A stretch of 64,000 nt of DNA, taken from the NCBI GenBank assembly GCA_022823665.1, contig JAJEHN010000015.1:4195-68194 (forward strand). The letters are read 5' to 3'. The number at the start of each line of letters is the position of its first letter. The first letter of the stretch is position 1. The position numbers and the translations under genes are program-made. Shown here one piece after another: positions 15,963 through 38,537 of this stretch. Origin of the DNA: Thermoanaerobaculia bacterium (GTDB lineage Bacteria > Acidobacteriota > Thermoanaerobaculia > Multivoradales > Multivoraceae). The notes under the pieces were generated by a model that worked only from the letters and a program-made list of their open reading frames with translations, made no database searches and was not told the origin of the DNA.

Positions 15963-16153
15963 TCCGCGGCCTGCGCCGCCGCCACCGGCTGATCTGGGCG
16001 GTGCTGTTTCCTGTCGTGGCGTTGATACTGGTAGTCGCGTTGCTCTCGAGGCCCGAGCCGCCGTTGATGGACGAGATTCCCGCCGTGCGCCCGGTCGAAG
16101 CCGAGACGGTCAGCGGTGCCGAGGACCCTCAGCGGGAAGATGAAGGCCCGTGA
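15959..16153 (+). CDS. Small membrane protein (1 TM)
   Basis: 64 aa, MIRGLRRRHRLIWAVLFPVVALILVVALLS followed by an acidic tail. ATGA overlaps on both sides (with 15684..15962 and with the Rieske gene). Confidence 0.35.
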   Translation: MIRGLRRRHRLIWAVLFPVVALILVVALLSRPEPPLMDEIPAVRPVEAETVSGAEDPQREDEGP

Positions 16154-17220
16154 GCGCCGAGTACCAGGCGGTCCTCTGGAACCGCAACAAGAAGCTCTAC
16201 GACCTGACGATCGCGGCCGGCGTCGTGGCCTTTCTCGGCATCTTCGTCGGCATCGGCATCGCGACCCGCCCGCAGGCGACGATCGAAACCCTGCTGATCC
16301 GCGGCTTCGGCGCCGGCGCCCTGCTGCTGCTCCATGTCGTGCTCGCCATCGGGCCGCTCTGCCGGCTGGACTCCAGGTTCCTGCCCTTCCTCTACAACCG
16401 CCGCCACCTCGGCGTCTGCACGTTCCTGCTGGCCCTGGCTCACGGCGGGTTCTCGATCGTCCAGTTCCACGGCCTCGGCGTCCTCAACCCGCTGGTCAGC
16501 GTGCTTGCCAGCAACGGCAACTACGGCAGCCTGACCCAGTTCCCGTTCCAGGCGCTCGGCCTCCTGGCGCTGGTCATCCTGTTCCTGCTGGCGGCGACCT
16601 CGCACGACTTCTGGCTCGCGAACCTGACCGCGCCGGCGTGGAAGGCGCTCCACATGCTGGTCTACGTCGCCTACGGACTGATCCTGGTCCACGTGGCGCT
16701 GGGAAGCCTCCAGGCTCCGGAGCGATCGCCGGCGCTCGCCGTCCTGCTGGGCATCGGCTTCGCCGGCGTCGCCTCGTTGCACCTCGTGGCCGGCTGGCGC
16801 GAGCGCGCCCCGGCGCCGAACGCCGAGGTAGGCGGTGCCGCGGTCGATGTCTGCGCCGTCTCCGACATCCCCCTCGACCGGGCCCGGATCTTCCTGCTCA
16901 GCGGCGAGCGAGTGGCGGTGTTTCGTTACAGCGCGGACGGCGGCGAGCGAATCGCGGCCGTCTCCAACGTCTGCCAGCACCAGAACGGACCGCTCGGCGA
17001 AGGCCGGGTGATCGACGGCTGCATCACCTGCCCGTGGCACGGCTACCAGTACCGTCCCGAGGACGGCTGCTCGCCGCCGCCGTTCACGGAGACCATCCCG
17101 ACCTTCAACGTCCGCGTCGAGAACGGCCGGGTGCTGGTCGATCCGCGTCCCAATCCGCCCGGGACCCATGCCGAGCCGGCACGGCTCGGCGCCGCGACCG
17201 GCGCCGGGGAGCCTTCGTGA
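16150..17220 (+). CDS. Ferric-reductase-like transmembrane bis-heme domain fused to a Rieske [2Fe-2S] domain
   Basis: N-terminal six TM helices carrying two His pairs spaced 12-13 residues apart (RRHLGVCTFLLALAHGG; ALHMLVYVAYGLILVHVALG). This is the FRD/YedZ-type heme-b ligation pattern. The C-terminal Rieske box is CQHQNGPL...GCITCPWHGYQY (CxH-x16-CxxH). Confidence 0.8.
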   Translation: MSAEYQAVLWNRNKKLYDLTIAAGVVAFLGIFVGIGIATRPQATIETLLIRGFGAGALLLLHVVLAIGPLCRLDSRFLPFLYNRRHLGVCTFLLALAHGGFSIVQFHGLGVLNPLVSVLASNGNYGSLTQFPFQALGLLALVILFLLAATSHDFWLANLTAPAWKALHMLVYVAYGLILVHVALGSLQAPERSPALAVLLGIGFAGVASLHLVAGWRERAPAPNAEVGGAAVDVCAVSDIPLDRARIFLLSGERVAVFRYSADGGERIAAVSNVCQHQNGPLGEGRVIDGCITCPWHGYQYRPEDGCSPPPFTETIPTFNVRVENGRVLVDPRPNPPGTHAEPARLGAATGAGEPS

Positions 17221-18131
17221 CCGGCGAGCGCCACGACGATTTCTACGTCGGCTATGTCGACGAGACGCCGCCTCGCGTCGCGCGTTTCGCCCGCCGCGCC
17301 GCGATCGGCCTCGTGCTACTGGCCACCGCCCTGGGCGCCGGTCTGGCGCTGCTGCTGGAGCGGTTCGACGAAGGCGTCTTCGAGTACGGCACGGTGCGGG
17401 ACTACGAAGGCGAACTGTTCGTCGATCCCCATCCCCGGCTGCTGACGGCGGACGGACCGGCCGAGGGCTATCTGCTGGTCGGCGTGGGTAAACGGGCACT
17501 CGATGTAACCGGCGAGCCCAGCGCGCCCTCGACGCCCTCGCCGTCCAGGAAGACCGGGCTTTCGGGCACGCTCATCCGGAACCCGGAAGCGGCGATGCTG
17601 GAAGTCCACTCCCTCGATCTCCCTGAAGGAACCCTTGAAGCTGGACCCGCCGTCGAGCCGGACGCTCGGGCCGCTCAATCCGCTCCGCCGACCAGCGGCT
17701 CGCCCCTCGACGGCGAGAGGGCCGGTCCGGAGTCCGAGGTGACAACCATCGTCACTCACGTCCGTGGGCACACCCTGCTGGGCGAGATCGTCGACACGAA
17801 GTGCTATCTCGGCGCCATGAAGCCGGGCCGCGGCAAACCCCACCGGGACTGCGCCTCGCTCTGCATCCGGGGCGGCATTCCGGCCGCGCTCCTGGTGCGG
17901 ACGGAAGGCGGAGAGCGTCACCTGGTCCATCTGCTGAACCCGCAGGGCAAGCCGTTGGGGCGCGAGCTCCTCGAGTGGGTGGGCGAACCGGTGGAAGTGT
18001 GGGGAACCCTGAGGCGGCGCGAGAACCGCCTGTTCCTGCGGACAATCACCATCAGACCGACACGCGCCCCGGCGCCATCCATCGTCGTCCCGGCGGCGCG
18101 CGAACCCGGGGCTGCAACAGCCGATGACTGA
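17217..18131 (+). CDS. Membrane-anchored hypothetical protein
   Basis: GTG start overlapping the Rieske stop (GTGA). 304 aa. One N-terminal TM (AAIGLVLLATALGAGLALLL). A Pro/Ser-rich linker. A C-terminal domain with conserved Cys/His (CYLGAMKPGRGKPHRDCASLCIRGG). Its stop overlaps the olsB start by 8 nt. Confidence 0.5.
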   Translation: MTGERHDDFYVGYVDETPPRVARFARRAAIGLVLLATALGAGLALLLERFDEGVFEYGTVRDYEGELFVDPHPRLLTADGPAEGYLLVGVGKRALDVTGEPSAPSTPSPSRKTGLSGTLIRNPEAAMLEVHSLDLPEGTLEAGPAVEPDARAAQSAPPTSGSPLDGERAGPESEVTTIVTHVRGHTLLGEIVDTKCYLGAMKPGRGKPHRDCASLCIRGGIPAALLVRTEGGERHLVHLLNPQGKPLGRELLEWVGEPVEVWGTLRRRENRLFLRTITIRPTRAPAPSIVVPAAREPGAATADD

Positions 18132-18987
18132 ACCGGTACGCAGCAACGCCTCGGCAACCGGTTCGTGCGGCGGCAGCGTTCCGAGCCCCGAACGCCTGCC
18201 CGACGGTCAGATCGAAGCCGGCACCTACCGCCTGCGCTTCGCCCGCACCGCCGCCGACATCGACCGGCTGCTCGCGCTCCGTTTCGAGGTCTTCAACCTG
18301 GAGCTGGGTGAGGGCCTCGACGAGTCGTACGACACCGGCCGCGACACGGACGACTTCGACGCGAGTTGCCACCACATGCTGGTCGAGCGGACGGACGGCA
18401 CGATGATCGGCACGTACCGAATGCAGACGGCCGCCATGGCGGCCCGCGCCAACGGTTTCTACTCGGCCATCGAGTACGACCTGGACGCCCTGCCCCGCAG
18501 CGTGCTCGAGCAGTCGGTCGAGATCGGCCGGGCCTGCATCCATCGCCGGCACCGGAAGCGGACCGTTCTCTTCCTGCTCTGGCAGGGCCTGGCCCGCTAC
18601 ATGGTGCACAACCGCCTCCGCTACCTGTTCGGCTGCTGCTCCCTGACCAGCCAGGACCAGGCCGCCGGCATCCGGCTCTACCGGCAGCTCGTCGCGGCGG
18701 GCAAGGTCCGGCCCGACCTCGACGTACCGGTGCTCGAGCACGCCCGCTGCGAGGCGCCGGCCGAGGCGGTCGAGAACCGTCCGGAGGTCGAGATACCGGC
18801 CCTGTTCGCGACCTATCTGCGCTACGGCGCCCTCGTCTGCAGCCGGCCGGCCATCGACCGCGACTTCAAGACGATCGACTACCTGGTCCTGATGGACACC
18901 GCGACGCTCAGCCGGCGCATCCGGCTGATCTTCGGACTCGACCGGGCGCCGGCGGCCGGACCGGCCACGCACGCCGCCGACGCCTGA
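18124..18987 (+). CDS. olsB: Ornithine-acyl-ACP N-acyltransferase (OlsB-like GNAT / Acetyltransf_5)
   Basis: 287 aa. Hallmark OlsB N-terminal region YRLRFARTAADIDRLLALRFEVFNLELGEGL. Followed 5 nt later by a PlsC-type acyltransferase. Confidence 0.8.
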   Translation: MTEPVRSNASATGSCGGSVPSPERLPDGQIEAGTYRLRFARTAADIDRLLALRFEVFNLELGEGLDESYDTGRDTDDFDASCHHMLVERTDGTMIGTYRMQTAAMAARANGFYSAIEYDLDALPRSVLEQSVEIGRACIHRRHRKRTVLFLLWQGLARYMVHNRLRYLFGCCSLTSQDQAAGIRLYRQLVAAGKVRPDLDVPVLEHARCEAPAEAVENRPEVEIPALFATYLRYGALVCSRPAIDRDFKTIDYLVLMDTATLSRRIRLIFGLDRAPAAGPATHAADA

Positions 18988-18991
18988 GGGA

Positions 18992-19807
18992 ATGCGCCTC
19001 CTGCGCGTCTGCCGGCTGGCCTGGCGTGGCCCGGCATTCCTCCTGCTCACGCTGGCCGCGTGGCTGCCGCTGTTCGTGCTGAAGCCGTTTCTCGCGGGCC
19101 GCCGCTACCCGACCTGGCGGAAGGTCCGCGCCGGCATCATGCGCCGCTGGGGCCGCGCCTGCCTGGCGGTGCTCGGCTGCCGGGTGACGGTCCGTGGCGC
19201 GCCGCCGGCGCCGCCCTGCCTGCTGGTCTCGAACCACATCTCCTACGTCGACATCCTGGTGCTCGCGGCCTACTCGCCCGCCCGCTTCGTCTCCAAGGCC
19301 GAGATCGCGGACTGGCCCCTGGCCGGCACCGTCTGCCGAACGGTCGACATCATCTTCGTCGACCGCGGCCGGCGCCGCGACGTGACCCGGGTCGGCGAAC
19401 AGATCGCCGAAGCCCTCGAGGCCGGCGACCCGGTCATCCTCTTCCCCGAAGGCACCTCGACCCCCGGCGACGCGGTGGCCACCCTCAAGCCCTCCCTGCT
19501 GGCGCCGGCCGCCGTCCAGGAACTGCCGGTCCACTGGTCCGTTCTGCGCTACGAGACACCGGATGACGAGGATCCCGCCTTCCTGAGCGTCGCCTGGTGG
19601 GGCGAGATGCCGATGACGCCGCACGCGCCCGAGCTGCTCAAGCTCCGCCGCATCGAGTGCGCACTCGAGTTCGGAGCGGAACCGTTCCGCAACGCGGACC
19701 GCAAGGAACTCGCGGGCCTGCTGCGGCGCCGGATGACGGCGGCGTTCCGGCCGATGGTCTCGAGCGAGAAAGCGGCCGCCTCAACCGGCGACCGCCGGTT
19801 CCCATGA
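18992..19807 (+). CDS. olsA: Lyso-ornithine lipid O-acyltransferase (PlsC/LPLAT family)
   Basis: HX4D motif (SNHISYVDI) and FPEGT motif, with an N-terminal TM. It follows the olsB-like gene. Its stop overlaps the next start (ATGA). Confidence 0.8.
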   Translation: MRLLRVCRLAWRGPAFLLLTLAAWLPLFVLKPFLAGRRYPTWRKVRAGIMRRWGRACLAVLGCRVTVRGAPPAPPCLLVSNHISYVDILVLAAYSPARFVSKAEIADWPLAGTVCRTVDIIFVDRGRRRDVTRVGEQIAEALEAGDPVILFPEGTSTPGDAVATLKPSLLAPAAVQELPVHWSVLRYETPDDEDPAFLSVAWWGEMPMTPHAPELLKLRRIECALEFGAEPFRNADRKELAGLLRRRMTAAFRPMVSSEKAAASTGDRRFP

Positions 19808-22449
19808 CGACCTCCGGGCGGCGTCTGCCCTGGCTCCGGATCGCGCTCGGCGCCTATGCCGCCGCGCTGCTCGCGTCGACCGCCGTTCGCATCGTTGCGC
19901 CCGAACCGCCGCTGCCCGAACACCGCAAGACGATGGAGATCCCGACGCCGAGCGGCGAAGGCACGCTGCGCATCGCCTGGAACGAAGCGCCGGGAACCGA
20001 CGAGAGCATGTTTCCGCTCGTCTTGCTCCACGGTTCGCCCGGAAGCGCCGACAACTTCCGTCAACTCCGGGTGATCTGGGTTCTGAGAGCACTGGCCGAA
20101 CCGGCTGGCGACACGGACCAGAGCAGTGAGGCGGGGATCCGCAGCCGGCGGCTCATCACGCCCGACTTGCCAGGCTTCGGCGCCTCCGACAATCGCGTCG
20201 CCGACTACTCCTCCCGCGGCCACGCCGACTCGACGCTGAAGCTGCTCGACCGGCTGGGCGTCGACCGGTTTCACGTCCTCGGTTTCAGCATGGGCGGCGC
20301 GGTGGCGCTGCATCTCGTCGACCAGGCGCCCGACCGGGTGGCGTCCGTGATCATGGTCTCCTCGGTCGGCGTGCAGGAACTCGAGCTCCTGGGCGACTAC
20401 ACGGTCAACCACGGTCTGCACGGTCTCCAGCTCGGCCTGCTCTGGACGATCCGGAACCTGGTTCCCCACTTCGGCCTGCTCGACATCCCCGCAGCCCGCT
20501 CCTACGCCCGCAACTTCTACGACACGGATCAGCGACCACTACGAGGCATCCTGGAGTCCCTCGAAGCGCCGGTCTTCATCATCCACGGCGCGCGGGATCC
20601 ACTGGTCCCGGCCGCCGCGGCGCTGGAGCACCACCGCGTCGTGCCGCACAGCGAGCTGTGGATGCGGCCGGACAGCCACTTCTTCCTGTTCCGCGGCGGC
20701 GACGACCTGATGGATCGGATCGAGGAGTTCCTGGGCCGCGTCGAAGCGGGCGAGGCGGCCACGCGCGGCGATGCCGAAGCGGAGCGGCTGCGGCGGGCGG
20801 CACTGCCGTTCGACGACATGGACCTGCCGCCGTTCACCGGTCCCGCCCTGCTGATCGTCTTCCTGCTTCTCGTTTTCGCCGCGTACGCCAGCGAGGACCT
20901 GACCTGCATCACCGCCGGTCTGCTCGTCGCCCAAGGCCGGCTCGACTTCCCCGTGGCCGTCGCCGCCTGCTACGCCGGCATCCTGAGCAGCGACCTCGGC
21001 ATCGCCTGGCTGGCGCGCGTCCTCGGCCGGCCCGCGCTCAGACTGCCGCCCTTCAAGTGGTGGGTCAGCGAAGCGAGGTTCGAAGAGGCTTCGGCCTGGC
21101 TGCGGCGGCGCGCCCTGGTCGTCGTTCTGGTCAGCCGTTTCCTGCCGGGAACGCGGCTGCCGACGTGCCTGGCGGCCGGCATCCTGCGCACGAGCCTGCT
21201 CCGGTTCTGCTTCTACTTCGCTCTCGCCGTGGCCATCTGGACACCCGCCTTCGTCGGCGTCAACGCGCTCCTGGGACGCGAGGCGGTGGAACGTTTCGGC
21301 GGCCGGCTGCCGGGGGGGCTGCTCGGCGCCGCGCTGGCGCTGGCGGCCGTCATCTTCACCGTCCGGAGCGTCGTTGTGCCGCTCTTCACCTGGCGCGGCC
21401 GCCGCCTCTGGCGCGGCCGCCTGCTGCGCATCCGGCACTGGGAGTTCTGGCCGATGTGGGCGTTCTACCCGCCGCTCGCGCTCTACATCCTCTGGCAAGG
21501 CCTGCGACGCGGCAGCCTCACCGCGTTCACCGCGATCAACCCCGCCATGCCTCTCGGCGGCCTGCTCGGAGAATCGAAGAGCGACATCCTGGACGGGCTC
21601 GCCGGCATCGGCGACGCGCTGCCCGCCTGGAAGCGAATGCCGGCGGGAAGCCATGAGGAACGCATCGCGGCTCTGCGCTGCTTCCTGGAAGAAGAGAAGC
21701 TGGACTATCCGGTCGTGCTCAAGCCGGACACCGGCGAGCGCGGCCGCGGTGTCGCCGTGGCGCGCTCCGAAGCCGATGCGGCGACCTTCTTCGAGGAGAC
21801 GCCGGGACCGGCGCTCGCGCAGGAGTACGTCGCGGGCGAGGAGTACGGCGTGTTCTGGGCTCGCCACCCGGGCCGCCACGACGGGCACGTCTTCTCGATC
21901 ACCCACAAGGTCCGGCCCACGGTAACCGGCGACGGAACCAGCACCCTCGAACGGCTGATCCTGGCCGACGCGCGCGCCGTCGCCATCACCCACGTCTACC
22001 GGCGCGAACATCCGGAAGCGGCGACGCGGATCCCGGCCGCCGGCGAGGAAATCGAACTGACCGAGGTCGGCGCCCACTCGCGCGGGACGATCTTCCTGGA
22101 CGCGAACGACCTCCACACGCCCGAACTCGAACAGGCGATGAACACGATCTGCACCGCCTACGAGGGCTTCGACTTCGGCCGTCTCGATGTCCGCGCCCCC
22201 AGCGCCGAAGCCCTGCGGCGCGGTGAGGGCCTCCGCGTCCTGGAAGTCAACGGCGTGACCTCCGAGGCGACGCACATGTACGACGCCCGCTACGGCTTCT
22301 TCGCCGCCCACGCCATCCTGCGGCGCCAGTGGCGGATGGCCTTCGACCTCGCCGCCGAGCACACTCGCGACGGCGCCCAACCGGCGACCGTGAGTGAGAT
22401 CGTCCGCGCCGTCCGGGCAGAACGACGAGCCCGCCGCGGCGCGGCGTAG
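19804..22449 (+). CDS. Three-domain fusion: alpha/beta-hydrolase + DedA/VTT membrane domain + ATP-grasp carboxylate-amine ligase
   Basis: 881 aa from the internal Met (MTTSGRRLPWLRIALGAYAAALLAS, TM). (1) HGSPGS...GFSMGG (GxSxG nucleophile elbow) and a later ...IHGARDPLVP motif: alpha/beta-hydrolase. (2) LLIVFLLLVFAAYASEDLTCITAGLLVAQGRLDFPVAVAACYAGILSSDLGIAWLARVLGRP...LVSRFLPGTRLPTCLAAG: DedA/SNARE-associated. (3) YPVVLKPDTGERGRGVAVARSEADA...QEYVAGEEYGVFW...LEVNGVTSEATHMYDA: RimK-like ATP-grasp. The track ORF is extended 69 codons upstream. Confidence 0.75.
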   Translation: MTTSGRRLPWLRIALGAYAAALLASTAVRIVAPEPPLPEHRKTMEIPTPSGEGTLRIAWNEAPGTDESMFPLVLLHGSPGSADNFRQLRVIWVLRALAEPAGDTDQSSEAGIRSRRLITPDLPGFGASDNRVADYSSRGHADSTLKLLDRLGVDRFHVLGFSMGGAVALHLVDQAPDRVASVIMVSSVGVQELELLGDYTVNHGLHGLQLGLLWTIRNLVPHFGLLDIPAARSYARNFYDTDQRPLRGILESLEAPVFIIHGARDPLVPAAAALEHHRVVPHSELWMRPDSHFFLFRGGDDLMDRIEEFLGRVEAGEAATRGDAEAERLRRAALPFDDMDLPPFTGPALLIVFLLLVFAAYASEDLTCITAGLLVAQGRLDFPVAVAACYAGILSSDLGIAWLARVLGRPALRLPPFKWWVSEARFEEASAWLRRRALVVVLVSRFLPGTRLPTCLAAGILRTSLLRFCFYFALAVAIWTPAFVGVNALLGREAVERFGGRLPGGLLGAALALAAVIFTVRSVVVPLFTWRGRRLWRGRLLRIRHWEFWPMWAFYPPLALYILWQGLRRGSLTAFTAINPAMPLGGLLGESKSDILDGLAGIGDALPAWKRMPAGSHEERIAALRCFLEEEKLDYPVVLKPDTGERGRGVAVARSEADAATFFEETPGPALAQEYVAGEEYGVFWARHPGRHDGHVFSITHKVRPTVTGDGTSTLERLILADARAVAITHVYRREHPEAATRIPAAGEEIELTEVGAHSRGTIFLDANDLHTPELEQAMNTICTAYEGFDFGRLDVRAPSAEALRRGEGLRVLEVNGVTSEATHMYDARYGFFAAHAILRRQWRMAFDLAAEHTRDGAQPATVSEIVRAVRAERRARRGAA

Positions 22450-22453
22450 CGCC

Positions 22454-22921
22454 TTACCCCGCCTTCGCGGACGCCTTCTTCTTCGTCGTCCGCCGCCGCG
22501 GCTTCGGCTTCTCCAGGGCGTCGAGTCGCGCTTCGATCGCGCTCAGCCGCTCGATCACCGCCTCCAGGTCGGCCTTGCCGGGGACGCCGAGCTTCTCGAG
22601 TCGCCGCTCCAGGTGCTCGTCGATTCCCGTCCGCGCCTTGGCCCGGGTCTGCTCGATTCCCTTCTCGGCGGCGGAGCGCACCTGCTGGACCTTCTCCTCG
22701 GCCTTGTCCCGCCAGTTGCCCAGGGAGTCCCGACCCTGGCTTTCGACCTTCTCGCCGCGGGCGACCAGCCGGTCGAAGACCTTGGCCCCCGCGTCCGCCG
22801 CTTCGCCCGCCACGCCGACGCCGGCGAGCGCCACCTTGTGAGCCTTGTCGACGGCGGATTCGACCACCGCCCGCGCTTTCGATTCGCTATCCCTGGTTTC
22901 CGCCGCGGATGCTGCTGTCAT
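22454..22921 (-). CDS. Phasin / PHA granule-associated protein (TIGR01837-like)
   Basis: 155 aa. Coiled-coil, Lys/Glu-rich. The motif ...KVFDRLVARGEKVESQGRD...LEKLGVPGKADLEAVIERLSAIEARLDALE is typical of the poly(hydroxyalkanoate) granule-associated family. Confidence 0.6.
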   Translation of the reverse strand: MTAASAAETRDSESKARAVVESAVDKAHKVALAGVGVAGEAADAGAKVFDRLVARGEKVESQGRDSLGNWRDKAEEKVQQVRSAAEKGIEQTRAKARTGIDEHLERRLEKLGVPGKADLEAVIERLSAIEARLDALEKPKPRRRTTKKKASAKAG

Positions 22922-22937: not shown

Positions 22938-23711
22938 CTAGCGCCTTGCCGCCAGCCGCCGCTTCACCGTCTCGATGGGATTGCGATAGTCCACCGTGCC
23001 GAGGCCGCGGTTGGTCAGCTTGTAACCGATCAACGCCTGCAGCTTCTCCGGCATTTCCACCACGACTTCCCACGGCACGCCGACGAACTGGTTCTCCCGC
23101 TGCTTGAGCCACGCCAGGTTGAAGTTGAAGTTGATCGACCGTCGATACCCGTTGTCCGTCGAATTCCCGCCGCCCCGGTGCCAGACGGCGCCGTCCCAGA
23201 GGAACAGCGCCCCGGCCGGCATCTCCACGGTCAGCGTGGGCACGTCCGGATCGACCGGATCGGCAGAGCGGTGGCTGCCGGGAACGATCTCCGTCGCCCC
23301 GTTCTCGGCCGTAAACGGATCGAGCGCGATCAACGTGTTGGCGATCAGCGGAAAGTGCGGCCGCGCAAGCGGATAGTGGCCGTCGTCCTGGTGCATCCGC
23401 TGGCGACGGTCGCCCGGGCCCGGGCGCATCGCGGCGACGCCGGAGACCTGGTAGTCCGGGCCGAGCACCGCCTCCACCAGCCCCAGCAGGCGGTCGTCCA
23501 TGAGGAGTTCGTCGACGGCGCGGGTCTTGGCCAGCAGGTTGTGGGTGTGGATCGTCTGCTGGCCGTAGTCGTCCGTCAGCCGGCTGCCGATCTCGTCGAA
23601 AACGGGGGCGAGGCCACGCCGCAGCCCCTCCAGCATCTCTTCGTCCAGGAAGTCGGGCACCACCGTGTAGCCGTCTTGGCGGACCTGGCGCGCTGAAGTC
23701 TCGATATCCAT
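22938..23711 (-). CDS. Phytanoyl-CoA dioxygenase (PhyH) family Fe(II)/2-oxoglutarate oxygenase
   Basis: PhyH fold markers: HQDDGHYP (HxD facial triad), GALFLWDGAVWHRGGGN (distal His), RRS. Start set at the internal Met MDIETSARQ. Confidence 0.7.
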   Translation of the reverse strand: MDIETSARQVRQDGYTVVPDFLDEEMLEGLRRGLAPVFDEIGSRLTDDYGQQTIHTHNLLAKTRAVDELLMDDRLLGLVEAVLGPDYQVSGVAAMRPGPGDRRQRMHQDDGHYPLARPHFPLIANTLIALDPFTAENGATEIVPGSHRSADPVDPDVPTLTVEMPAGALFLWDGAVWHRGGGNSTDNGYRRSINFNFNLAWLKQRENQFVGVPWEVVVEMPEKLQALIGYKLTNRGLGTVDYRNPIETVKRRLAARR

Positions 23712-23779
23712 GAAGTCCCGTGAACAGTGATCCGTTGAAGCTTGCGCGGCAGCGTAACAAAGCGGGTAGCCTTCGTCCC

Positions 23780-24685
23780 ATGACAAGAAAGACGATGTAC
23801 AGCCGACCGATGTTCCGGGCCCTCCTGGCGACGCTGATCACGTTCGTCGCCTTCTCCGGCGCCTGGGCGCAAAGCGACGCCTCGACCCAGGCCTTCACGG
23901 CGAGCGACGGCGTCGAGATCCACTACCTCGTCGAGGGCCGCGGCGACCCGGTCGTGCTGCTCCACGGCATCACCGGCACCGCCGCCTCGAACTGGGGCGC
24001 CGCCGGCATCATCGGCCGGCTGGCCGAGGAGTTCCAGGTCATCGCCGTCGACCAGCGCGGGCACGGCAAGAGCGGCAAGCCGCACGACGCGGCGAGCTAC
24101 GGCGAGCGCATGGCCCTGGACGTCGTCGACCTGCTCGACCACCTGAGGCTGCAGCAGGCGCACGTCGTCGGCTACTCGATGGGCGGCTTCATCACGATGA
24201 AAGTCGTCGCCCTCGCGCCTGACCGGTTGATGTCGGCCGTGGTCGGCGGCGCCGGCTGGCCCAGCCCCGAACTGCGCGACGACGCGATGTTCGACGCGCT
24301 CGCGGAGTCTCTCGAGGGGGGCAACGGCGGAGGCCCCCTGGTCGAGTTCCTGTGGCCGGGCGAGGAACCGCCGACCCCCGAGCAGGTTCAGGCGATCGGC
24401 CAGGCGATGGTCGCCTCGAACGACCAGGCGGCCCTGGCAGCGGTCGTCCGCGGCATGGCCGGTCTCGACGTGAGCGCCGAACTCCTGCGCGTCAACAAGG
24501 TGCCGACCCTCAACATCATCGGCAGCGACGATCCCCTGAAGCCCAACGCCGACGCTCTGGTCGACACCATGCAGGAGCACCGCCTCCACGTCATCGAAGG
24601 CGCGAACCACATGAACACCCTGAACTCCCCCGAGTTCGTCGACACCGTCCGCGCTTTCTTCATCGAACTCTGCAACTGCGCGTAG
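23780..24685 (+). CDS. Secreted alpha/beta-hydrolase
   Basis: Signal peptide ...MFRALLATLITFVAFSGAWAQ. HGITGTAASNW. GYSMGG nucleophile elbow. C-terminal GANHM (His). The start is ambiguous among three in-frame Met (23780/23795/23810). Confidence 0.7.
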   Translation: MTRKTMYSRPMFRALLATLITFVAFSGAWAQSDASTQAFTASDGVEIHYLVEGRGDPVVLLHGITGTAASNWGAAGIIGRLAEEFQVIAVDQRGHGKSGKPHDAASYGERMALDVVDLLDHLRLQQAHVVGYSMGGFITMKVVALAPDRLMSAVVGGAGWPSPELRDDAMFDALAESLEGGNGGGPLVEFLWPGEEPPTPEQVQAIGQAMVASNDQAALAAVVRGMAGLDVSAELLRVNKVPTLNIIGSDDPLKPNADALVDTMQEHRLHVIEGANHMNTLNSPEFVDTVRAFFIELCNCA

Positions 24686-24716: not shown

Positions 24717-25853
24717 CTACGCCGAGAGCTGCGTCTCGACGAGCGTCGTCCAGTAGCGCATGCCGACCGGCAGGACGTCGTCGTTGAAGTCGTAGCGCGG
24801 GGTGTGGAGCCCGGCGCTTTCGCCGTTGCCGAGGAACATGAAGGCGCCAGGGCGCTCCTGGAGCATGTAGGCGAAATCCTCGGAGCCCATCACCGGGGCC
24901 AGGCTCGTGGTGACTTCCCTGCCGACCTCGCGGGCGGCGTTGGCCGCCTTCTCCGTCTGCTCGGCGTGGTTCACCGTCGCCGGGTAGTAGTGGCGGTACT
25001 GGAACTCGAAGCCTGCGCCGTGGGCGGTGCAGATGCCGCGGCCGATCTGGCGCATCCGCCGCTCGACCAGCTTCTGCACCTCGGGCAGGAACGCCCGGAC
25101 GCAGCCGCCGTGGACGACCCGGCTCGGGATCACGTTGTCCGCGTGACCGCCGTGGACACGGGCCACCGTGATCACCGCGCTATGGAGCGGATCCACGTTG
25201 CGGGCGACGATCGTCTGCAGGGCGAGGACGATCTCGGCCCCTATCGGGATCGGGTCCACCGTGCCGTGAGGAAACGCCGCGTGGCCGCCCGCGCTGGTCA
25301 CCGCGAACTCGAAGACGTCGATGGCCGCCATCAGCGGCCCGGCGCAGAGGCCGAAATTGCCGACGTCCATGCCCGGATAGTTGTGGACGCCGTAGACCTC
25401 CTCGGCCGGGAACTGCTCGAACAGCCCCTCCTCGATCATCACCCGGGCGCCGCCGTCCTTCTCCTCCGCGGGCTGGAAGAAGAAGTAGACCGTGCCGTCG
25501 AAGGACCGGTTCTCGCTCAGGTGCTTCGCCGCGCCGAGCAGCATCGCGGTGTGGCCGTCGTGGCCGCAGGCGTGCATCTTGCCGGGGTTCCGGGAACGGT
25601 GCTCGAAGTCGTTCTCCTCGTGAATCGGCAACGCGTCCATGTCCGCCCGCAGCGCGATGCTGCGGTCAGACGAACCGGACCTGAGCACGCCGACCACCCC
25701 GGTGCCGGCGAGGCCGCGATGAACCTCGATGCCGCCGAAGGACTCGAGCAGCTTCGCCACCTTGCCGCTCGTCACCTTCTCCTCGAACGCGAGTTCCGGG
25801 TGCCGGTGGAAGTCCCGGCGCCAGGACCTCATCTGTTCGTGCAGCGGATCCAT
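24717..25853 (-). CDS. M20D-family amidohydrolase (hippurate hydrolase / aminoacylase-like)
   Basis: MHACGHDGH metal-binding motif. The conserved M20 dimerisation domain. Start at the internal Met MDPLHEQMRSWRRDFHRHPELAFEE, which is the typical family N-terminus. Confidence 0.8.
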   Translation of the reverse strand: MDPLHEQMRSWRRDFHRHPELAFEEKVTSGKVAKLLESFGGIEVHRGLAGTGVVGVLRSGSSDRSIALRADMDALPIHEENDFEHRSRNPGKMHACGHDGHTAMLLGAAKHLSENRSFDGTVYFFFQPAEEKDGGARVMIEEGLFEQFPAEEVYGVHNYPGMDVGNFGLCAGPLMAAIDVFEFAVTSAGGHAAFPHGTVDPIPIGAEIVLALQTIVARNVDPLHSAVITVARVHGGHADNVIPSRVVHGGCVRAFLPEVQKLVERRMRQIGRGICTAHGAGFEFQYRHYYPATVNHAEQTEKAANAAREVGREVTTSLAPVMGSEDFAYMLQERPGAFMFLGNGESAGLHTPRYDFNDDVLPVGMRYWTTLVETQLSA

Positions 25854-25884
25854 GAGCTTCGATGGTAGCGGACGATCGAACCTC

Positions 25885-26301
25885 TCAACGACCGCCTTCG
25901 GGGGCGAACGGGTCGAGCACCGGGACTCCGAACGGCTCGAAGTCCCGGACATTCCGGGTAACCACCGTGAGGCCATGAGTTCGGGCCACGGCCGCGATCA
26001 TCGCGTCCTGGACCAAGGCTCCGGACTGCCGGTGCATCAGCCGTCCCCATTCTCTGAACGCGGCTGAGTCCAGAACCAGGACGGGATAGGCAAGGACCAC
26101 CTGCTCCAGCCATGTCTCCAACTCCCGAGCCTTGTCCGCGTCCGTCGCCCTCGTGATCTCGATTCCCGCCTGGATCTCGCCGATCGTGACCGCAGAGAGA
26201 TGAAGACGCTCGGACGGCACGCCGCGAATCCACCGCAGAACCGACGGATGCGGGCGAGGACGTCGCAACTCGGATACGACGTTCGTGTCGAGCAGATACA
26301 C
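25885..26301 (-). CDS. vapC: PIN-domain toxin VapC (type II TA)
   Basis: 138 aa. MYLLDTNVVSE (first acidic residue of the PIN fold). Conserved D...E...D...TRN pattern. A Phd/YefM-like gene sits immediately upstream, 5 nt away. Confidence 0.8.
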   Translation of the reverse strand: MYLLDTNVVSELRRPRPHPSVLRWIRGVPSERLHLSAVTIGEIQAGIEITRATDADKARELETWLEQVVLAYPVLVLDSAAFREWGRLMHRQSGALVQDAMIAAVARTHGLTVVTRNVRDFEPFGVPVLDPFAPEGGR

Positions 26302-35703: not shown

Positions 35704-36018
35704 ATGCTCGAGATCTTCCTTGGGCTGTACATCTTCATGCTCGCGGCCTTCGTCGGCTACGGCGTGATCAAGGGTGTACCTGCCCTGCTCCACACTCCGC
35801 TGATGGCGTTCACGAACGCGATCTCCGGCATCTCCCTGGTCGGCTCCCTGGTCGCCGCCGGCGCCCACTACAACGACGTGAGCACCGTCCTCGGCGCCAT
35901 CGCCGTGCTCTGCGCGACGATCAACGTCGTCGGCGGCTTCTGGATCACGGACCGCATGCTGCGGATGTTCAAGAAGCAGGACCCGAAGGCTGACGCGGCC
36001 GGAGACGCCGCATCGTGA
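35704..36018 (+). CDS. pntAB: NAD(P) transhydrogenase subunit alpha part 2 (membrane dII fragment)
   Basis: 104 aa, 3 TM (MLEIFLGLYIFMLAAFVGYGVIKGVPALLHTPLMAFTNAISGIS...). Position and size are canonical for split PntA. Confidence 0.85.
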   Translation: MLEIFLGLYIFMLAAFVGYGVIKGVPALLHTPLMAFTNAISGISLVGSLVAAGAHYNDVSTVLGAIAVLCATINVVGGFWITDRMLRMFKKQDPKADAAGDAAS

Positions 36019-37427
36019 TCAGCCAGGTCGAGACGCTCTACCTGATCGCGTCGTTCCTGTTCATCCTAGGGCTCCGCGGCCTGACCGCGGCCCACACGGC
36101 CCGGCGCGGGCTGATCTTCGCTGAACTGGGCATGGGGTTCGCCATCTGGGGCACCCTGATCCACCCGGACATCATGGCCCGCTTCGAGATCGCGGGCTTC
36201 TTCGACACCTACAAGTGGATCCTGCTGACCTTCTTCATCGGCAGCGCCATCGGCATCGCCATCTCGGCGCTCATCCCGATGACCCGGATGCCCGAGCGGA
36301 TCGCCCTCTCCCACGCCTTCGGCGGACTCGCCGCGGCGCTGGTCGGCGTCTCCGAGTACTACCGCGAGCAGGTCGTCGCCGGGCACATGGACCACACGAC
36401 GATGGGCGCGATCGGCTTCGAGGTCCTGTTCGGGGGATTGACCTTCACCGGCTCGCTGATGGCCTTCGGCAAACTCTCGGGCCTCATTCCCGGCCGCAAC
36501 ATCACCTGGCCGCTCCAGAACCAGAGCAACATCCTGATGTTCGGGGGCACCTTCGTGCTCCTCGTCCTGGTCACCATCGACCCGTCGAACCAGATCCTCT
36601 TCTACGCCATGGCGGCGATGCCGCTGCTGCTCGGCATCCTGTTCGTGGCGCCCATCGGCGGCGCCGACATGCCGGTCGTCATCACGCTGCTCAACTCCTA
36701 CGCCGGCCTCGCCGCCTCGGCGACCGGATTCGCACTGGACAACAACGTCCTGATCATCGCCGGCGCCATCGACGGCGCCTCGGGTTTCATCCTCTCCGTC
36801 GTCATGAGCAAGGCGATGAACCGCTCGTTCCGCAACGTCCTGTTCGGCGCCTTCGGCAAGGTCGACGAGGAAGACGCGGCGATGGCCTCCGCGGGCGGCG
36901 AACGGGTCCAGGAAGCCTCCGTCGGCGATGCCGCGATGCTGCTCTCCGGCGCAGGCTCCGTCATCGTCTGCCCCGGCTACGGCATGGCGGTGGCACAGGC
37001 CCAGCACGTCGTCGGCGAACTGGCCGAGATCCTGGAAGCGAACGGCACCCAGGTCCGCTACGCCATCCATCCCGTCGCCGGCCGCATGCCTGGCCACATG
37101 AACGTCCTGCTCGCCGAGGCGAAGATTCCCTACACGTCGCTGATGGAGCTCGAGGAGATCAACGAGGACTTCAAGAACACCGACGTCGCCCTCGTCGTCG
37201 GCGCCAACGACGTAGTCAACCCGGCCGCGAAGCACAACCCGGCCAGCTCGATCTACGGCATGCCGGTGCTGAACGCCGACCTGGCGAGGTCCTGCATCGT
37301 CCTCAAGCGCTCGATGCGGCCGGGCTTCGCCGGCATCGAGAACGAGCTGTTCTTCGCACCGAACACGGTGCTGACGTTCGGCGACGCGAAGGACACGTTG
37401 GAGAAAGTCGTCGAGGCGTTGCGTTAA
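36015..37427 (+). CDS. pntB: NAD(P) transhydrogenase subunit beta
   Basis: 470 aa. N-terminal 9 TM plus a C-terminal dIII NADP(H)-binding domain (GYGMAVAQAQH...VGANDVVNPAA). Overlaps pntAB by 4 nt. Confidence 0.92.
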   Translation: MISQVETLYLIASFLFILGLRGLTAAHTARRGLIFAELGMGFAIWGTLIHPDIMARFEIAGFFDTYKWILLTFFIGSAIGIAISALIPMTRMPERIALSHAFGGLAAALVGVSEYYREQVVAGHMDHTTMGAIGFEVLFGGLTFTGSLMAFGKLSGLIPGRNITWPLQNQSNILMFGGTFVLLVLVTIDPSNQILFYAMAAMPLLLGILFVAPIGGADMPVVITLLNSYAGLAASATGFALDNNVLIIAGAIDGASGFILSVVMSKAMNRSFRNVLFGAFGKVDEEDAAMASAGGERVQEASVGDAAMLLSGAGSVIVCPGYGMAVAQAQHVVGELAEILEANGTQVRYAIHPVAGRMPGHMNVLLAEAKIPYTSLMELEEINEDFKNTDVALVVGANDVVNPAAKHNPASSIYGMPVLNADLARSCIVLKRSMRPGFAGIENELFFAPNTVLTFGDAKDTLEKVVEALR

Positions 37428-37475
37428 GGGCGCGCTGCGTACTTGGCTTCCCGCCATGCCGCGAAAGCTGGCGAT

Positions 37476-38438
37476 CTATGAGACCTCGCTGCCTCCGAAA
37501 TGGATGATCCGGCCTTCCGGATCGGGAATCCACGGGCCCGAAACCGCCATCACCACTGTCCTTGGAGGGTCGGCAAGACCTCTCTCAACAACCGTTGGAG
37601 GTAACGCTTCAAAGATGACTGGAACGTCAGATGGGTAAGGCCAGTCCGGCCCCGAGAACCATCGAGTTGGACTGGTGTGACTCCTTCCTATCAGCACAAC
37701 CTCGCCATCATCCAAGAAACTCGAATAGTACGCCTTCTTCTCGGCCTCAAGCCAAACCTTCTTCCGAAAGGTCGTCCCGCCAGCCTCGGACCAGCCACCA
37801 AGCTGATGCCGGAGCTCCGCACCGTAGAAGACCGTCCCGAGGCTCAACTTCTGCGCCTCCTTGAGGCGCTTGAGTGACTCCTCGCGCCCCTCAAGAGTCC
37901 AGTCCAGTCGTGGCTCGCGAACTCGCTCGGGGTGATTCGTCAGACCAAGCACGCCGCTAGTCTCTCCAGCCTTACCGAGCACCATCTGCTCGATATGAAT
38001 CAGCACCCGCTGAGCGTAGTACGCCGCATCGTGCTTGACGGGATCATGATAGTGTACGTGCGGCAGACGTTTGGCAGGAGGAGGGGGGAACGGCAATTGA
38101 AGAACGGGTACGGGCGCTCCTTCCCTATAGTGCAACTCCAAGTCGGTGGGGACCTTCAGGGCAAGACTGTAGGCAGGGAAAACGTGTCTTCGGCCATGCA
38201 CCGACTCGCGAGCCGAGCTACAGTATGCTTGGATCCAGGACCATTCCTCCGCACTGCGCGAAACAGGTGCACGCGCCACGGCCAGCTTGATTCTCGATCT
38301 TTGATTCTCGTACATTCCCGACGTGACTACCTCGTCGAGCACGTCCATGTACTTCTGGGGATCAAGTCCCATATCTCCGGCCATGCGCTCGACTTGATTC
38401 CTGCGCAGCGACCGCGCTTGCTGGGGACAACTCGTCAT
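37476..38438 (-). CDS. Hypothetical protein in a reduced-GC island (candidate restriction-system component)
   Basis: No recognisable motifs. Lies 22 nt downstream of the DNA MTase gene on the same strand, inside the GC-depressed segment. Start chosen at internal Met M27; M1 and M45 are also possible. Confidence 0.4.
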   Translation of the reverse strand: MTSCPQQARSLRRNQVERMAGDMGLDPQKYMDVLDEVVTSGMYENQRSRIKLAVARAPVSRSAEEWSWIQAYCSSARESVHGRRHVFPAYSLALKVPTDLELHYREGAPVPVLQLPFPPPPAKRLPHVHYHDPVKHDAAYYAQRVLIHIEQMVLGKAGETSGVLGLTNHPERVREPRLDWTLEGREESLKRLKEAQKLSLGTVFYGAELRHQLGGWSEAGGTTFRKKVWLEAEKKAYYSSFLDDGEVVLIGRSHTSPTRWFSGPDWPYPSDVPVIFEALPPTVVERGLADPPRTVVMAVSGPWIPDPEGRIIHFGGSEVS

Positions 38439-38537
38439 GGGCCGACCGTACAACTCTGCGCGACCTTGGTCAAGCGGACTACCTCGACCCGGTACTGCGC
38501 CTCCACGACCGACCAAAGAAGGTGACGGATACAGCCA

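Follow-up and report, generated by a model that had tools for sequence, protein, structure and literature searches.

A conserved fusion of an alpha/beta-hydrolase, a DedA domain and an ATP-grasp ligase encoded beside OlsB-like and OlsA-like genes is a candidate modifier of bacterial amino-acid lipids

Introduction

MprF is an aminoacyl-phosphatidylglycerol synthase/flippase whose periplasmic hydrolase partners are AcvB in Agrobacterium and PA0919 in Pseudomonas. The known modifiers of ornithine lipids are the OlsC, OlsD and OlsE hydroxylases and the OlsG methyltransferase; to our knowledge, fusions of ATP-grasp, DedA or alpha/beta-hydrolase type are absent from the amino-lipid modifiers known so far. 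In the bifunctional glutathionylspermidine synthetase/amidase, Gsp, one chain carries both an ATP-grasp-type amide synthetase and a hydrolase which undoes the bond. The attachment of taurine to the carboxyl group of ornithine lipid requires ATP, the taurine transferase of cerilipin is without a known gene, and glycine lipid occurs as an intermediate on the way to the Ser-Gly lipid flavolipin (PMC12971839). Proteins of the alpha/beta-hydrolase fold also act as O-acyltransferases, an example being OlsI of the OlsH/OlsI ornithine-lipid pathway (PMC12493201). COG0586/UptA-like DedA proteins are proposed undecaprenyl-phosphate flippases (subfamily survey).

Here we describe a single polypeptide encoded in a 64,000-nucleotide stretch of Thermoanaerobaculia DNA (contig JAJEHN010000015.1), the whole of which is termed the window, in which an alpha/beta-hydrolase, a DedA/VTT membrane domain and an ATP-grasp ligase are fused. 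The protein is a good candidate for a missing enzyme modifying bacterial amino-acid lipids. It resembles MprF/AcvB in its predicted logic, that is, cytoplasmic addition of an amino acid, an outward-moving membrane domain and a periplasmic alpha/beta-type hydrolase that removes the modification. It differs in using an ATP-grasp domain rather than aminoacyl-tRNA transfer, a DedA rather than an MprF flippase domain, one polypeptide for all three parts, and a gene context that suggests phosphorus-free acyloxyacyl amino lipids rather than phosphatidylglycerol. The resemblance is one of logic only, as no Pfam or NCBIfam match to the MprF synthase/flippase or VirJ/AcvB families is found in the fusion. 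Synthetase and hydrolase share a single chain as in Gsp, whose hydrolase is however a CHAP amidase and which is soluble and cytoplasmic, whereas the fusion has an alpha/beta-hydrolase and its activities are separated by the membrane. OlsI, compared by description only, is likewise an alpha/beta-hydrolase-fold protein encoded in an amino-lipid operon, but the present operon already contains an OlsA-like acyltransferase of the PlsC type, and the hydrolase has a predicted periplasmic location, remote from acyl-ACP/acyl-CoA. As regards the OlsB/OlsA pathway, OlsB-like and OlsA-like genes directly accompany the fusion gene, and an ATP-dependent amide ligase is the enzyme type expected for addition of taurine or an amino acid to a head-group carboxylate.

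Results

A single gene encodes the three domains

An uninterrupted plus-strand frame extends over 19597..22449, in which the ATG at 19804 gives a protein of 881 aa (ORF list). This ATG overlaps the stop codon of the upstream OlsA-like gene (ATGA), and alignments with homologues begin at residue 1. ORF, profile, homologue and AlphaFold data (mean pLDDT 87.9) give the following features.

19804..22449, plus strand: 881-aa fusion protein (anchor helix, alpha/beta-hydrolase, DedA domain, ATP-grasp ligase)
19831..19899, plus strand: N-terminal transmembrane anchor, residues 10-32, N-terminus predicted inside (hydropathy; AF2 helix 4-31)
19921..20748, plus strand: alpha/beta-hydrolase domain, residues ~40-315, predicted periplasmic (Abhydrolase_1)
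20287-20289, 20596-20598 and 20677-20679, plus strand: codons of the catalytic triad, Ser162, Asp265 and His292, respectively
20821..21387, plus strand: DedA/VTT membrane domain, residues ~340-528 (VTT_dom profile; helices from AF2)
21388..21513, plus strand: Arg-rich amphipathic helix and hydrophobic 'WEFWP' helix, residues 529-570, predicted monotopic anchor on the cytoplasmic face
21514..22446, plus strand: ATP-grasp ligase body, residues 571-881, predicted cytoplasmic
21721-21723 and 22243-22251, plus strand: ATP-grasp key residues Lys640 and Glu814/Asn816, respectively, the others being Arg646, Gln673 and Arg793/Asp795

ORF length is weak evidence in this DNA because G+C content is 70% and an antisense ORF of 613 aa overlaps the fusion gene. 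GC3 is uniform, at 0.87-0.91 in the same frame across all three domain segments, more than 120 full-length homologues exist (44-100% identity), and all of the 79 related loci retrieved contain the three domains in a single ORF. Combined, these results indicate a real single gene and confirm that 19804-22449 encodes one genuine three-domain protein. The sequence-only reading, which placed the three domains in one continuous frame, is thus borne out, while its own concern, a frameshift, is ruled out by conservation of the fusion. No evidence was found in support of an assembly or frameshift artefact wrongly joining separate genes, which is already refuted since the fusion is conserved: the same single ORF recurs in the 79 independent loci, complete chromosomes and two cultured strains included, and in 74 of the best 150 cluster representatives, and GC3 stays uniform within one frame. 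The probability of an artefact is vanishingly small.

Relatives occur in at least 274 species genomes of Acidobacteriota, Gemmatimonadota, Planctomycetota and Rhodothermia, and no characterised family member was found among them. The 74 three-domain proteins were counted among representatives of the ATP-grasp module, which otherwise occurs alone, as DedA+grasp or as hydrolase+grasp, and this module is the constant core across architectures. The architecture had been considered unusual, a view that does not hold with respect to rarity given so large a conserved family. A search of architectures finds a common fusion, yet not one already annotated with a known function, as database names for relatives are only "alpha/beta fold hydrolase" or "DedA". 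The fusion is a widely conserved but unstudied membrane protein.

The fusion gene is linked to amino-lipid synthesis genes

The fusion gene closes a tightly packed cluster of five genes, the first four of which are listed below.

16150..17220, plus strand: Rieske [2Fe-2S] and ferric-reductase-like haem membrane fusion, 356 aa (Pfam Rieske 1.5e-14, Ferric_reduct 2.8e-12); its stop overlaps the next start (GTGA)
17217..18131, plus strand: hypothetical protein, 304 aa, with a single predicted membrane helix and Cys in its C-terminal domain; no Pfam or NCBIfam match
18124..18987, plus strand: OlsB-like GNAT N-acyltransferase, 287 aa (Pfam Acetyltransf_5 9e-29)
18992..19807, plus strand: OlsA-like PlsC-type O-acyltransferase, 271 aa, HX4D motif NHISYVD (Pfam Acyltransferase 1.8e-20)

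The OlsB-like enzyme is predicted to catalyse the first step of amino-lipid synthesis. As its Acetyltransf_5 match is clear but its scores against the NCBIfam OlsB models (135 and 131 bits) lie under the equivalog cut-offs of 350 and 320, it is assigned as an amino-lipid N-acyltransferase which is not necessarily ornithine-specific. The OlsA-like protein similarly scores 130 and 128 bits against the NCBIfam OlsA models, under the cut-off of 300. In contrast to the OlsB/OlsA pathway proper, both proteins therefore fall far under ornithine-specific cut-offs, which is a point against the amino-lipid proposal, the head-group amino acid being not necessarily ornithine. Because these two genes are immediately upstream, acyloxyacyl amino lipids are favoured over phospholipid head groups. 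The two genes are the decisive context which the sequence-only reading missed.

An OlsB-like gene is located within 6 kb in 69 of the 79 related loci, upstream on the same strand in 66 of these, and of the 42 loci with less than 55% identity 32 are among the 69. An OlsB-like and an OlsA-like gene occur together in 65/79 loci, and flanks are truncated in 8 of the 10 loci lacking an OlsB-like gene. The other cluster members are also retained, a Rieske/ferric-reductase-like relative in 47/79 loci, including other phyla and rearranged positions, and the 304-aa protein in 49/79 (tblastn), with 30-40% identity at the lowest, in Gemmatimonadota/Rhodothermia. Most sampled forms other than the three-domain protein also adjoin OlsB/OlsA or OlsF-like genes: the DedA+grasp proteins P0136 and P0143 adjoin OlsB/OlsA genes and P0133 the gene of an OlsF-like bifunctional synthase, hydrolase+grasp P0248 lies behind OlsB/OlsA, and grasp-only P0245 and P0247 lie in front of OlsB/OlsA, the latter with an OlsC-type hydroxylase gene nearby. 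The OlsB/OlsA/OlsF-like linkage thus holds across architectures and phyla. No OlsB gene was found within 6 kb of the stand-alone relatives P0242 and P0178, which counts against a role in amino-lipid modification.

Hydrolase and ligase are predicted to face opposite sides of the membrane

All three domain assignments of the sequence-only reading are correct and agree with domain searches, and each motif that it quoted is present (GFSMGG at 160-165, VVLKPDTGERGRGV at 637-650, EVNG at 814-817). The hydrolase belongs to Abhydrolase_1 (PF00561; 94 bits, cut-off 25.8, residues 71-187, E=1.5e-26), and an Abhydrolase_6 match covers residues 72-297. Ser162 lies in the nucleophile elbow G-x-S-x-G, here GFSMGG, Asp265 and His292 are probable triad members because of their position in the fold, and all three are invariant in 33 diverse homologues (44-88% identity). 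Foldseek with this domain detects esterases and C-C hydrolases of a generic kind; among the matches listed, identity is highest, at 24%, for PlaF (6i8w), a membrane-anchored phospholipase, and ABHD6 is included too. That the fold matches are only generic is a point against an amino-lipid role, as is the O-acyltransferase activity of some proteins of this fold, such as OlsI. The earlier label of esterase is unproven, and the domain could be an amidase or a transacylase.

Charge around the N-terminal helix follows the positive-inside pattern: across 121 family members, mean K+R falls from 3.7 ahead of the helix to 2.1 behind it and mean D+E rises from 0.4 to 2.2, with 85 members for and 17 against. 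Cysteine-accessibility mapping of YqjA places the DedA core N-out/C-in (bioRxiv 10.1101/2021.10.18.464800), and hydrolase+grasp variants have exactly one membrane helix between hydrolase and grasp. From these three observations we strongly infer a cytoplasmic ligase and a periplasmic hydrolase. The earlier suggestion of an on-membrane lipid machine is therefore sustained as a general idea by the conserved amino-lipid gene context, though with a changed mechanism, since the membrane is predicted to separate hydrolase from ligase.

The DedA domain most resembles UptA-type transporters

The membrane domain matches VTT_dom (PF09335; 47.7 bits, cut-off 33.9, residues 372-486, E=2.7e-12), and AF2 places the two re-entrant helices typical of DedA at 346-362/364-376 and 423-444/451-460. 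Invariant residues are found at the first re-entrant tip (Glu364/Asp365) and at the second (Arg445/Pro448/Gly449/Arg451). It thus shares with the UptA/COG0586 subfamily the Pfam VTT match, the two re-entrant helices, an acidic first tip and a second tip with two arginines six residues apart, and the nearest NCBIfam model is UptA (NF052604). The score of 54 bits is however far under the UptA equivalog cut-off of 250, enzymes are fused on both sides, an architecture absent from the DedA fusions in the subfamily survey, and the neighbouring genes are for amino lipids rather than the cell wall. The domain is closest to UptA-type transporters, with their acidic/basic tips, and a cargo other than amino lipids is possible. 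Such a cargo could be undecaprenyl phosphate or a derivative, flipped by DedA, with a carrier-linked precursor as the substrate of a Ddl-like ATP-grasp domain and of the periplasmic hydrolase. This would account for the nearest curated model, for both tips and for Ddl among the fold matches of the ligase, but not for the low UptA score or for the retention of OlsB/OlsA or OlsF neighbours by ATP-grasp modules without DedA; moreover, no conserved cell-wall genes adjoin the fusion or ATP-grasp loci among the neighbourhoods inspected. A carrier-lipid function is thus regarded as very unlikely.

The ligase is a predicted membrane-associated ATP-grasp domain distinct from RimK

The C-terminal domain has the fold, the ATP-binding Lys and the E-x-N metal site of the ATP-grasp superfamily, and K640, R646, E814 and N816 are invariant among homologues. 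Individual families fit poorly. ATP-grasp_3, the best Pfam ATP-grasp model, gives 18.1 bits (cut-off 23.2), Pfam RimK (PF08443) does not match the window protein and matches some relatives weakly, the best NCBIfam ligase scores (RimK family, LysX) are all under curated cut-offs, with 18.7 bits for the RimK family (TIGR00768, cut-off 143.4), and cyanophycin synthetase (TIGR02068, a multi-domain G-M-N layout) gives 38 bits (cut-off 850) with only the ATP-grasp core aligned. The closest relatives in sequence and fold are GshAB, cyanophycin synthetase, LysX/ArgX, RimK and Ddl. All add a free amino acid; in the first four a peptide or protein carries the activated carboxylate, which in Ddl belongs to a free D-alanine. 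Instead of ligating, the domain could act as a kinase, for instance on a lipid head group, but this is most improbable.

The description as RimK-like is accurate at the level of the clade but fails at that of the family, given the RimK scores and the absence of most of the usual N-domain. With respect to the G-domain clade of RimK, LysX/ArgX, GshB and cyanophycin synthetase, the Arg-rich and 'WEFWP' helices take the place of most of the customary N-terminal substrate domain, and the predicted substrate is a lipid rather than a protein or polymer. W546, E547, F548 and W549 are invariant, and stand-alone relatives retain the 'WEFWP' segment, flanked on either side by Arg-rich stretches. With such flanks the helix probably cannot cross the membrane fully, provided that the ATP-using domain is cytoplasmic.

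The ATP-grasp domain could alternatively supply the head group, making a soluble dipeptide or modified amino acid which is then N-acylated by the OlsB-like enzyme, with DedA and hydrolase acting later or independently. L-amino-acid ligases and Ddl are among the fold relatives (BacD, RizA, Ddl), the grasp gene precedes OlsB/OlsA in several clusters and natural dipeptide and tripeptide head groups exist, although the intermediate reported for flavolipin is a mono-amino-acid lipid (PMC12971839). As every form of the ligase, stand-alone included, keeps the Arg-rich and 'WEFWP' membrane segment, and fusion to a lipid-transporter domain is usual, a membrane-embedded substrate is favoured and head-group supply is considered unlikely.

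Discussion

We propose, tentatively and at somewhat less than an even chance, that the fusion is the modifying and translocating component of an acyloxyacyl amino-lipid (ornithine-lipid-type) pathway. In the cytoplasmic leaflet, the OlsB-like and OlsA-like enzymes would make an amino-acid lipid that is both N-acylated and O-acylated. The C-terminal ATP-grasp domain, anchored at the cytoplasmic face through a hydrophobic helix of its own, would use ATP to form a head-group amide through an acyl-phosphate, the likeliest bond being between the free carboxylate of the lipid's amino acid and a second amino acid or amine; with the alternative polarity, a free amino acid would be joined to a side-chain amine of the lipid. 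The DedA domain would move the head group across the inner membrane, where the periplasm-facing hydrolase may cleave the added group or an acyl chain and so tune how much modified lipid is present. We infer only, in each case, the substrate and bond of the ligase, the flipping role of DedA and the cleavage target of the hydrolase. The enzymatic parts are probably active, judging by the invariance of the triad, of E364/D365 and R445/R451 in DedA and of K640/R646/E814/N816 in ATP-grasp, while a reaction that uses ATP to attach an amine or amino acid to an acyloxyacyl amino lipid is proposed from gene context and ligase clade.

The amino-lipid context fits equally a cycle of lipid re-acylation, in which the ATP-grasp domain would join the acyl-phosphate of a free fatty acid to an amino acid or lyso-amino-lipid, the hydrolase would deacylate, supplying fatty acid or lyso-lipid, and DedA would shuttle lyso-lipid between leaflets. 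A Legionella ATP-grasp enzyme condenses fatty acids with histidine via an acyl-phosphate, according to a citation in PMC11631085, and the hydrolase resembles the membrane-anchored lipid hydrolases PlaF and ABHD6. However, it is amino-acid and peptide ligases to which the ligase is most closely related, and not fatty-acid-activating enzymes, both acyltransferases are already in the operon, and fatty acid freed outside must return to a ligase on the opposite side of the membrane. Re-acylation is therefore judged unlikely, on a par with head-group supply.

Extending the proposed pathway role, the ATP-grasp module may be the founding member of the missing ATP-using class that extends amino-lipid head groups, as in the taurine-ornithine lipid cerilipin and in di-/tripeptide lipids such as flavolipin, the fused DedA domain the first amino-lipid flippase to be identified and, with the periplasmic hydrolase, the whole a convergent single-chain equivalent of MprF/AcvB. 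We hold this extension to be rather unlikely as it stands, though less so than either re-acylation or head-group supply. If true, it would mean surface-charge control of the MprF/AcvB kind for phosphorus-free lipids.

Results

Coding sequence and gene cluster of the fusion protein

In the ORF list, a + strand frame is open without interruption from 19597 to 22449, and a start at ATG 19804 yields the 881-aa polypeptide described in the sequence-only reading. This ATG shares bases with the stop codon of the gene before it (CCC ATG A), and the alignments of homologous genomes begin at residue 1 of the fusion protein, observations which together make 19804 the likely start. The motifs quoted in that reading are all present, GFSMGG at residues 160-165, VVLKPDTGERGRGV at 637-650 and EVNG at 814-817. 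ORF length by itself proves little, as the window DNA is ~70% G+C and the fusion-gene region is overlapped by an antisense ORF of 613 aa. Third-position G+C is alike, 0.87-0.91, across the hydrolase, DedA and ATP-grasp segments, and the frame is coding. Real genes are also overlain by long ORFs, up to 671 aa, that are antisense or out of frame, at 20539-22380 (-) and, for the others, within 16116-20469; such ORFs are an artefact common in 70% G+C DNA and not genes. A frameshift or assembly artefact is excluded by conservation of the fusion in 79 loci, complete chromosomes included. The proposal of a single continuous three-domain polypeptide is thus upheld by this conservation and by the uniform third-position G+C, and we hold with high confidence that the fusion is real.

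The fusion gene is the fifth and last of five tightly packed genes, with stops and starts overlapping or nearly abutting at junctions GTGA, ATGACTGA, TGAGGGAATG and ATGA.

Genes of the five-gene cluster (window coordinates, strand, product, basis)
16150-17220, +, Rieske [2Fe-2S] and ferric-reductase-type haem membrane fusion; Pfam
17217-18131, +, 304-aa protein; no family match
18124-18987, +, OlsB-like GNAT N-acyltransferase; Acetyltransf_5, 9e-29
18992-19807, +, OlsA-like PlsC O-acyltransferase; 1.8e-20, HX4D motif present
19804-22449, +, fusion protein; ORF list, Pfam

While the domains and motifs of the sequence-only reading stand, the gene neighbourhood, with its OlsB-like and OlsA-like genes, had been overlooked. 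The OlsB-like and OlsA-like proteins score ~130 bits on ornithine-specific NCBIfam models, well below the cut-offs of 300-350; judged by sequence, they appear to be amino-lipid acyltransferases whose head-group amino acid is not necessarily ornithine. The 304-aa protein matches nothing in Pfam or NCBIfam. Scanning for promoter and terminator consensus sequences around the cluster found none, as expected in 70% G+C DNA of a non-model phylum.

Downstream of the cluster are genes for a phasin, a PHA granule protein (22454-22921, -), a PhyH-type Fe/2-oxoglutarate dioxygenase (22938-23786, -) and a second, stand-alone alpha/beta-hydrolase (23720-24685, +); a link of these to the lipid cluster is not supported, as they are syntenic in close relatives only. 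Genes for an M20-family amidohydrolase (Peptidase_M20, 2.6e-48; 24717-25976, -) and a PIN-domain, VapC-like toxin (5.4e-18; 25885-26301, -) follow. In principle an M20 enzyme might have N-acyl amino acids as substrates, but nothing ties this one to the cluster. Elsewhere, G+C is 0.62-0.66 at window 36001-42000 versus 0.68-0.72 in the remainder of the window, and this segment may be horizontally acquired.

Domains and invariant residues

Abhydrolase_1 (E=1.5e-26) and VTT_dom (E=2.7e-12) exceed their Pfam cut-offs, while the match of the ATP-grasp part to ATP-grasp_3 is weak (18 bits versus a cut-off of 23). The ATP-grasp identity, though weak in Pfam, is clear from profile tests against NCBIfam and PDB: the NCBIfam cyanophycin synthetase model matches the grasp core at 7e-9, and the family profile matches PDB sequences of GshAB (6e-9), cyanophycin synthetases (~1e-7), a RimK-domain protein (1.5e-5) and Ddl (4e-5). 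That this domain is instead a kinase is unlikely, the profile matches being ligases only. In an alignment of 33 diverse family members, the invariant residues are Ser162, Asp265 and His292 in the hydrolase, Glu364/Asp365 and Arg445/Pro448/Gly449/Arg451 in the DedA domain, and Lys640, Arg646, Gln673, Arg793/Asp795 and Glu814/Asn816 in the ATP-grasp domain, with Trp546-Glu-Phe-Trp549 and Glu590-Ser-Lys592 also invariant ahead of the grasp body. With invariant residues in each, all three parts seem to be functional. AlphaFold models the full-length protein with confidence (mean pLDDT 87.9). The hydrolase weakly matches S33 aminopeptidases. A lineage-specific insertion in the hydrolase (window 20056-20148, residues ~85-115; pLDDT <50 at residues 102-112) explains part of the length differences among close relatives.

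Family size and annotation

Searching for homologues gave more than 120 full-length proteins (850-990 aa, 44-100% identity), each carrying hydrolase and VTT domains, and relatives are present in at least 274 genomes in a scan of one genome per species. The architecture, previously described as unusual, is therefore not rare. Locus counts reported here rest on 79 retrieved loci, in all of which (79/79) the three domains are consecutive on one strand. Some belong to the clade of the window (Thermoanaerobaculia, 'Candidatus Multivorans' and Holophagales MAGs, up to 90% identity), and others to further Acidobacteriota, Blastocatellia, Gemmatimonadota, Planctomycetota, Rhodothermia and a few Desulfobacterales; the cultured carriers among the 79 are Saltatorellus ferox Poly30 and Acidobacteria bacterium Mor1.

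Full-length homologues are named at source only 'alpha/beta fold hydrolase' or 'carboxylesterase/DedA', and database labels of family members go no further than 'hypothetical protein', 'DedA family' or 'alpha/beta fold hydrolase'. Names retrieved for clusters were limited to 'hypothetical protein' or 'DedA'. A homologue search from a stand-alone ATP-grasp member returned no characterised or informatively named protein, and no curated family of Pfam or NCBIfam names the fusion. A literature search on ATP-grasp, DedA, OlsB and ornithine-lipid combinations found, in the library covered, no paper describing the architecture, and a survey of DedA subfamilies gives other DedA fusions, hydrolase+DedA+ATP-grasp not among them. 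The domain types are all known and MprF-type logic is a known analogue; the protein is not categorically new.

The ATP-grasp module and its genomic associations

A profile of the ATP-grasp module, searched against 1.84 billion cluster representatives, gave 5274 matches at E<1e-3 and 1654 at E<1e-30. Architectures of the best 150 representatives, most of them complete proteins beginning with Met, were assigned by domain HMMs.

Architectures among the best 150 cluster representatives
Hydrolase + DedA + grasp: 74
DedA + grasp: 55
Hydrolase + grasp: 6
Grasp alone: 15

What stays constant across the family is the ATP-grasp module. Genomic context was examined for nine representatives of the non-three-domain forms. 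In the DedA+grasp class, P0136 occurs in the order DinB-like, TANGO2-like, P0136, OlsB-like, OlsA-like, P0143 comes after an OlsB-like, an OlsA-like and one 194-aa gene, and P0133 lies divergent to an OlsF-like bifunctional synthase of 645 aa (Acyltransf_2 + Acetyltransf_5). For hydrolase+grasp, P0248 comes after OlsB-like and OlsA-like genes with overlapping junctions, and P0144 after DinB and TANGO2, the contig ending soon beyond it. Among grasp-only forms, P0245 is ahead of OlsB-like and OlsA-like genes and P0247 lies in the order DinB, TANGO2, P0247, OlsB-like, OlsA-like, YHS and close to an OlsC-type (Asp/Arg-hydroxylase) gene; an OlsB gene is absent within 6 kb of P0242 and P0178. P0242 adjoins an MMPL transporter: at L080:7449-12490 it is upstream of genes for a 451-aa unknown protein, a TP_0789/DUF1329-like lipoprotein and an MMPL/RND transporter, an arrangement that may point to lipid export. 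Of the nine forms, six adjoin amino-lipid synthase genes, which are of two different kinds.

The three-domain loci have similar neighbours. An OlsB-like gene is located within 6 kb in 69/79 loci, upstream on the same strand in 66 of the 69, and OlsB-like and OlsA-like genes are both present in 65/79. The OlsB-like gene is found in 32 of the 42 loci below 55% identity, and eight of the ten loci without it have truncated flanks. That association with amino-lipid genes recurs in four architectures and in several phyla provides the strongest evidence on function, which is otherwise read from fold and topology, and we conclude with high confidence that the fusion protein belongs to an amino-lipid pathway. 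An undecaprenyl-phosphate-related role would suit the DedA domain, whose closest resemblance is to UptA and whose tips show the COG0586 pattern, but is weakened by the OlsB/OlsA linkage remaining where the DedA domain is absent.

The Rieske fusion (47/79 loci, also in rearranged positions) and the 304-aa protein (49/79) both extend to other phyla and may constitute a redox accessory, perhaps a hydroxylase or desaturase, of the same lipid pathway. DinB-like (~175-190 aa) and TANGO2-like (~235-260 aa) genes accompany 26/79 and 16/79 three-domain loci, respectively, and neither occurs anywhere in the window. In other lineages they repeatedly adjoin the ATP-grasp gene, as at L043:5252-5788 (Mor1), L060:4618-5190 (Poly30), L082:4791-6004, L085:4725-5977 and L088:4658-5986.

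Membrane topology

Cysteine-accessibility mapping of E. coli YqjA identified three crossings and two re-entrant hairpins in the DedA core, with the N-terminal side periplasmic and the C-terminus cytoplasmic (bioRxiv 10.1101/2021.10.18.464800). The ATP-grasp domain must be cytoplasmic, as it needs ATP. P0144 and P0248 (loci L085 and L086), hydrolase+grasp forms with no DedA core, have exactly one membrane helix between the enzymes, which therefore lie on opposite membrane faces; these variants also show that the hydrolase-ligase pairing is not dependent on the DedA domain. In 121 members of the family, the 15-residue stretch preceding the N-terminal helix contains on average 3.7 Lys+Arg and 0.4 Asp+Glu and the 15 residues after it 2.1 and 2.2, respectively, with 85 members for and 17 against a positive-inside bias, indicating that the N-terminus is inside and the hydrolase outside. 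A cytoplasmic hydrolase, derived from four assumed DedA crossings, was overturned by the YqjA mapping, the hydrolase+grasp variants and the positive-inside signal. Stand-alone members start with an Arg-rich stretch, a hydrophobic WEFWP helix and further basic residues; basic on both sides and preceding a cytoplasmic ATP-grasp domain, this helix cannot cross the membrane and most plausibly serves as a monotopic anchor at the cytoplasmic face. With fairly high confidence, the layout is a short cytoplasmic tail, anchor helix, periplasmic hydrolase, DedA domain and cytoplasmic ligase.

Discussion

The ligase is closest, in sequence and fold, to GshAB, cyanophycin synthetase, LysX/ArgX, RimK and Ddl. 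The carboxylate activated by the first four is on a peptide, polymer or carrier protein and that activated by Ddl is of free D-alanine; in each case it is converted to an acyl-phosphate and then joined to a free amino acid. A carboxylate of just this kind is available at the membrane surface on an acyloxyacyl amino lipid. In place of most of the N-terminal substrate domain usual for such ligases, the fusion protein has a membrane-associated segment that contains invariant residues. On the basis of the clade chemistry, the lipid carboxylate and this replacement, we propose a pathway in which the OlsB-like and OlsA-like enzymes would make the lipid, the ligase would extend its head group with an amino acid or amine, the DedA domain would carry the lipid outward, and the periplasmic hydrolase would take off the added group or an acyl chain. 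Our confidence is moderate for head-group ligation and low for the hydrolase step. The data are equally compatible with ligation in the opposite polarity, of a free amino acid onto a side-chain amine of ornithine or lysine, which would fit the weak S33 aminopeptidase match of the hydrolase. MprF with its periplasmic hydrolase partner is a parallel in design, without homology to the fusion protein in Pfam or NCBIfam.

Weight is given to head-group ligation by passages of a 2026 review (PMC12971839), in which taurine transfer onto the ornithine-lipid carboxyl group is ATP-dependent with the gene unknown, and glycine lipid is the intermediate of the Ser-Gly lipid flavolipin, the extending enzyme not being named in those passages. 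Fatty-acid activation by the ATP-grasp domain followed by re-acylation has precedent in a Legionella ATP-grasp enzyme making acyl-histidine (cited in a passage of PMC11631085) and in the resemblance of the hydrolase to the anchored lipases PlaF and ABHD6, but is weakened by the clade of the ligase, by the presence already of both acyltransferases and by the membrane separating ligase from hydrolase. Soluble head-group synthesis ahead of OlsB is likewise weakened, as the membrane segment is universally kept and the ligase is fused to DedA.

Amino-acid lipids take the place of phospholipids in many environmental and host-associated bacteria and influence stress resistance and immune recognition. 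To our knowledge, several steps in their biology are without a known gene, and we know of no identified flippase or periplasmic turnover enzyme for these lipids; the words 'flippase' and 'transport' are absent from the review PMC12971839. The fusion family provides one concrete candidate for each role, ATP-dependent head-group extension, flippase and periplasmic turnover, in which clear point mutants are possible. A DedA protein would also be tied, by gene fusion, to a defined lipid partner, which bears on what DedA proteins transport. The family is large (1654 cluster representatives at E<1e-30) and stands behind generic database labels.
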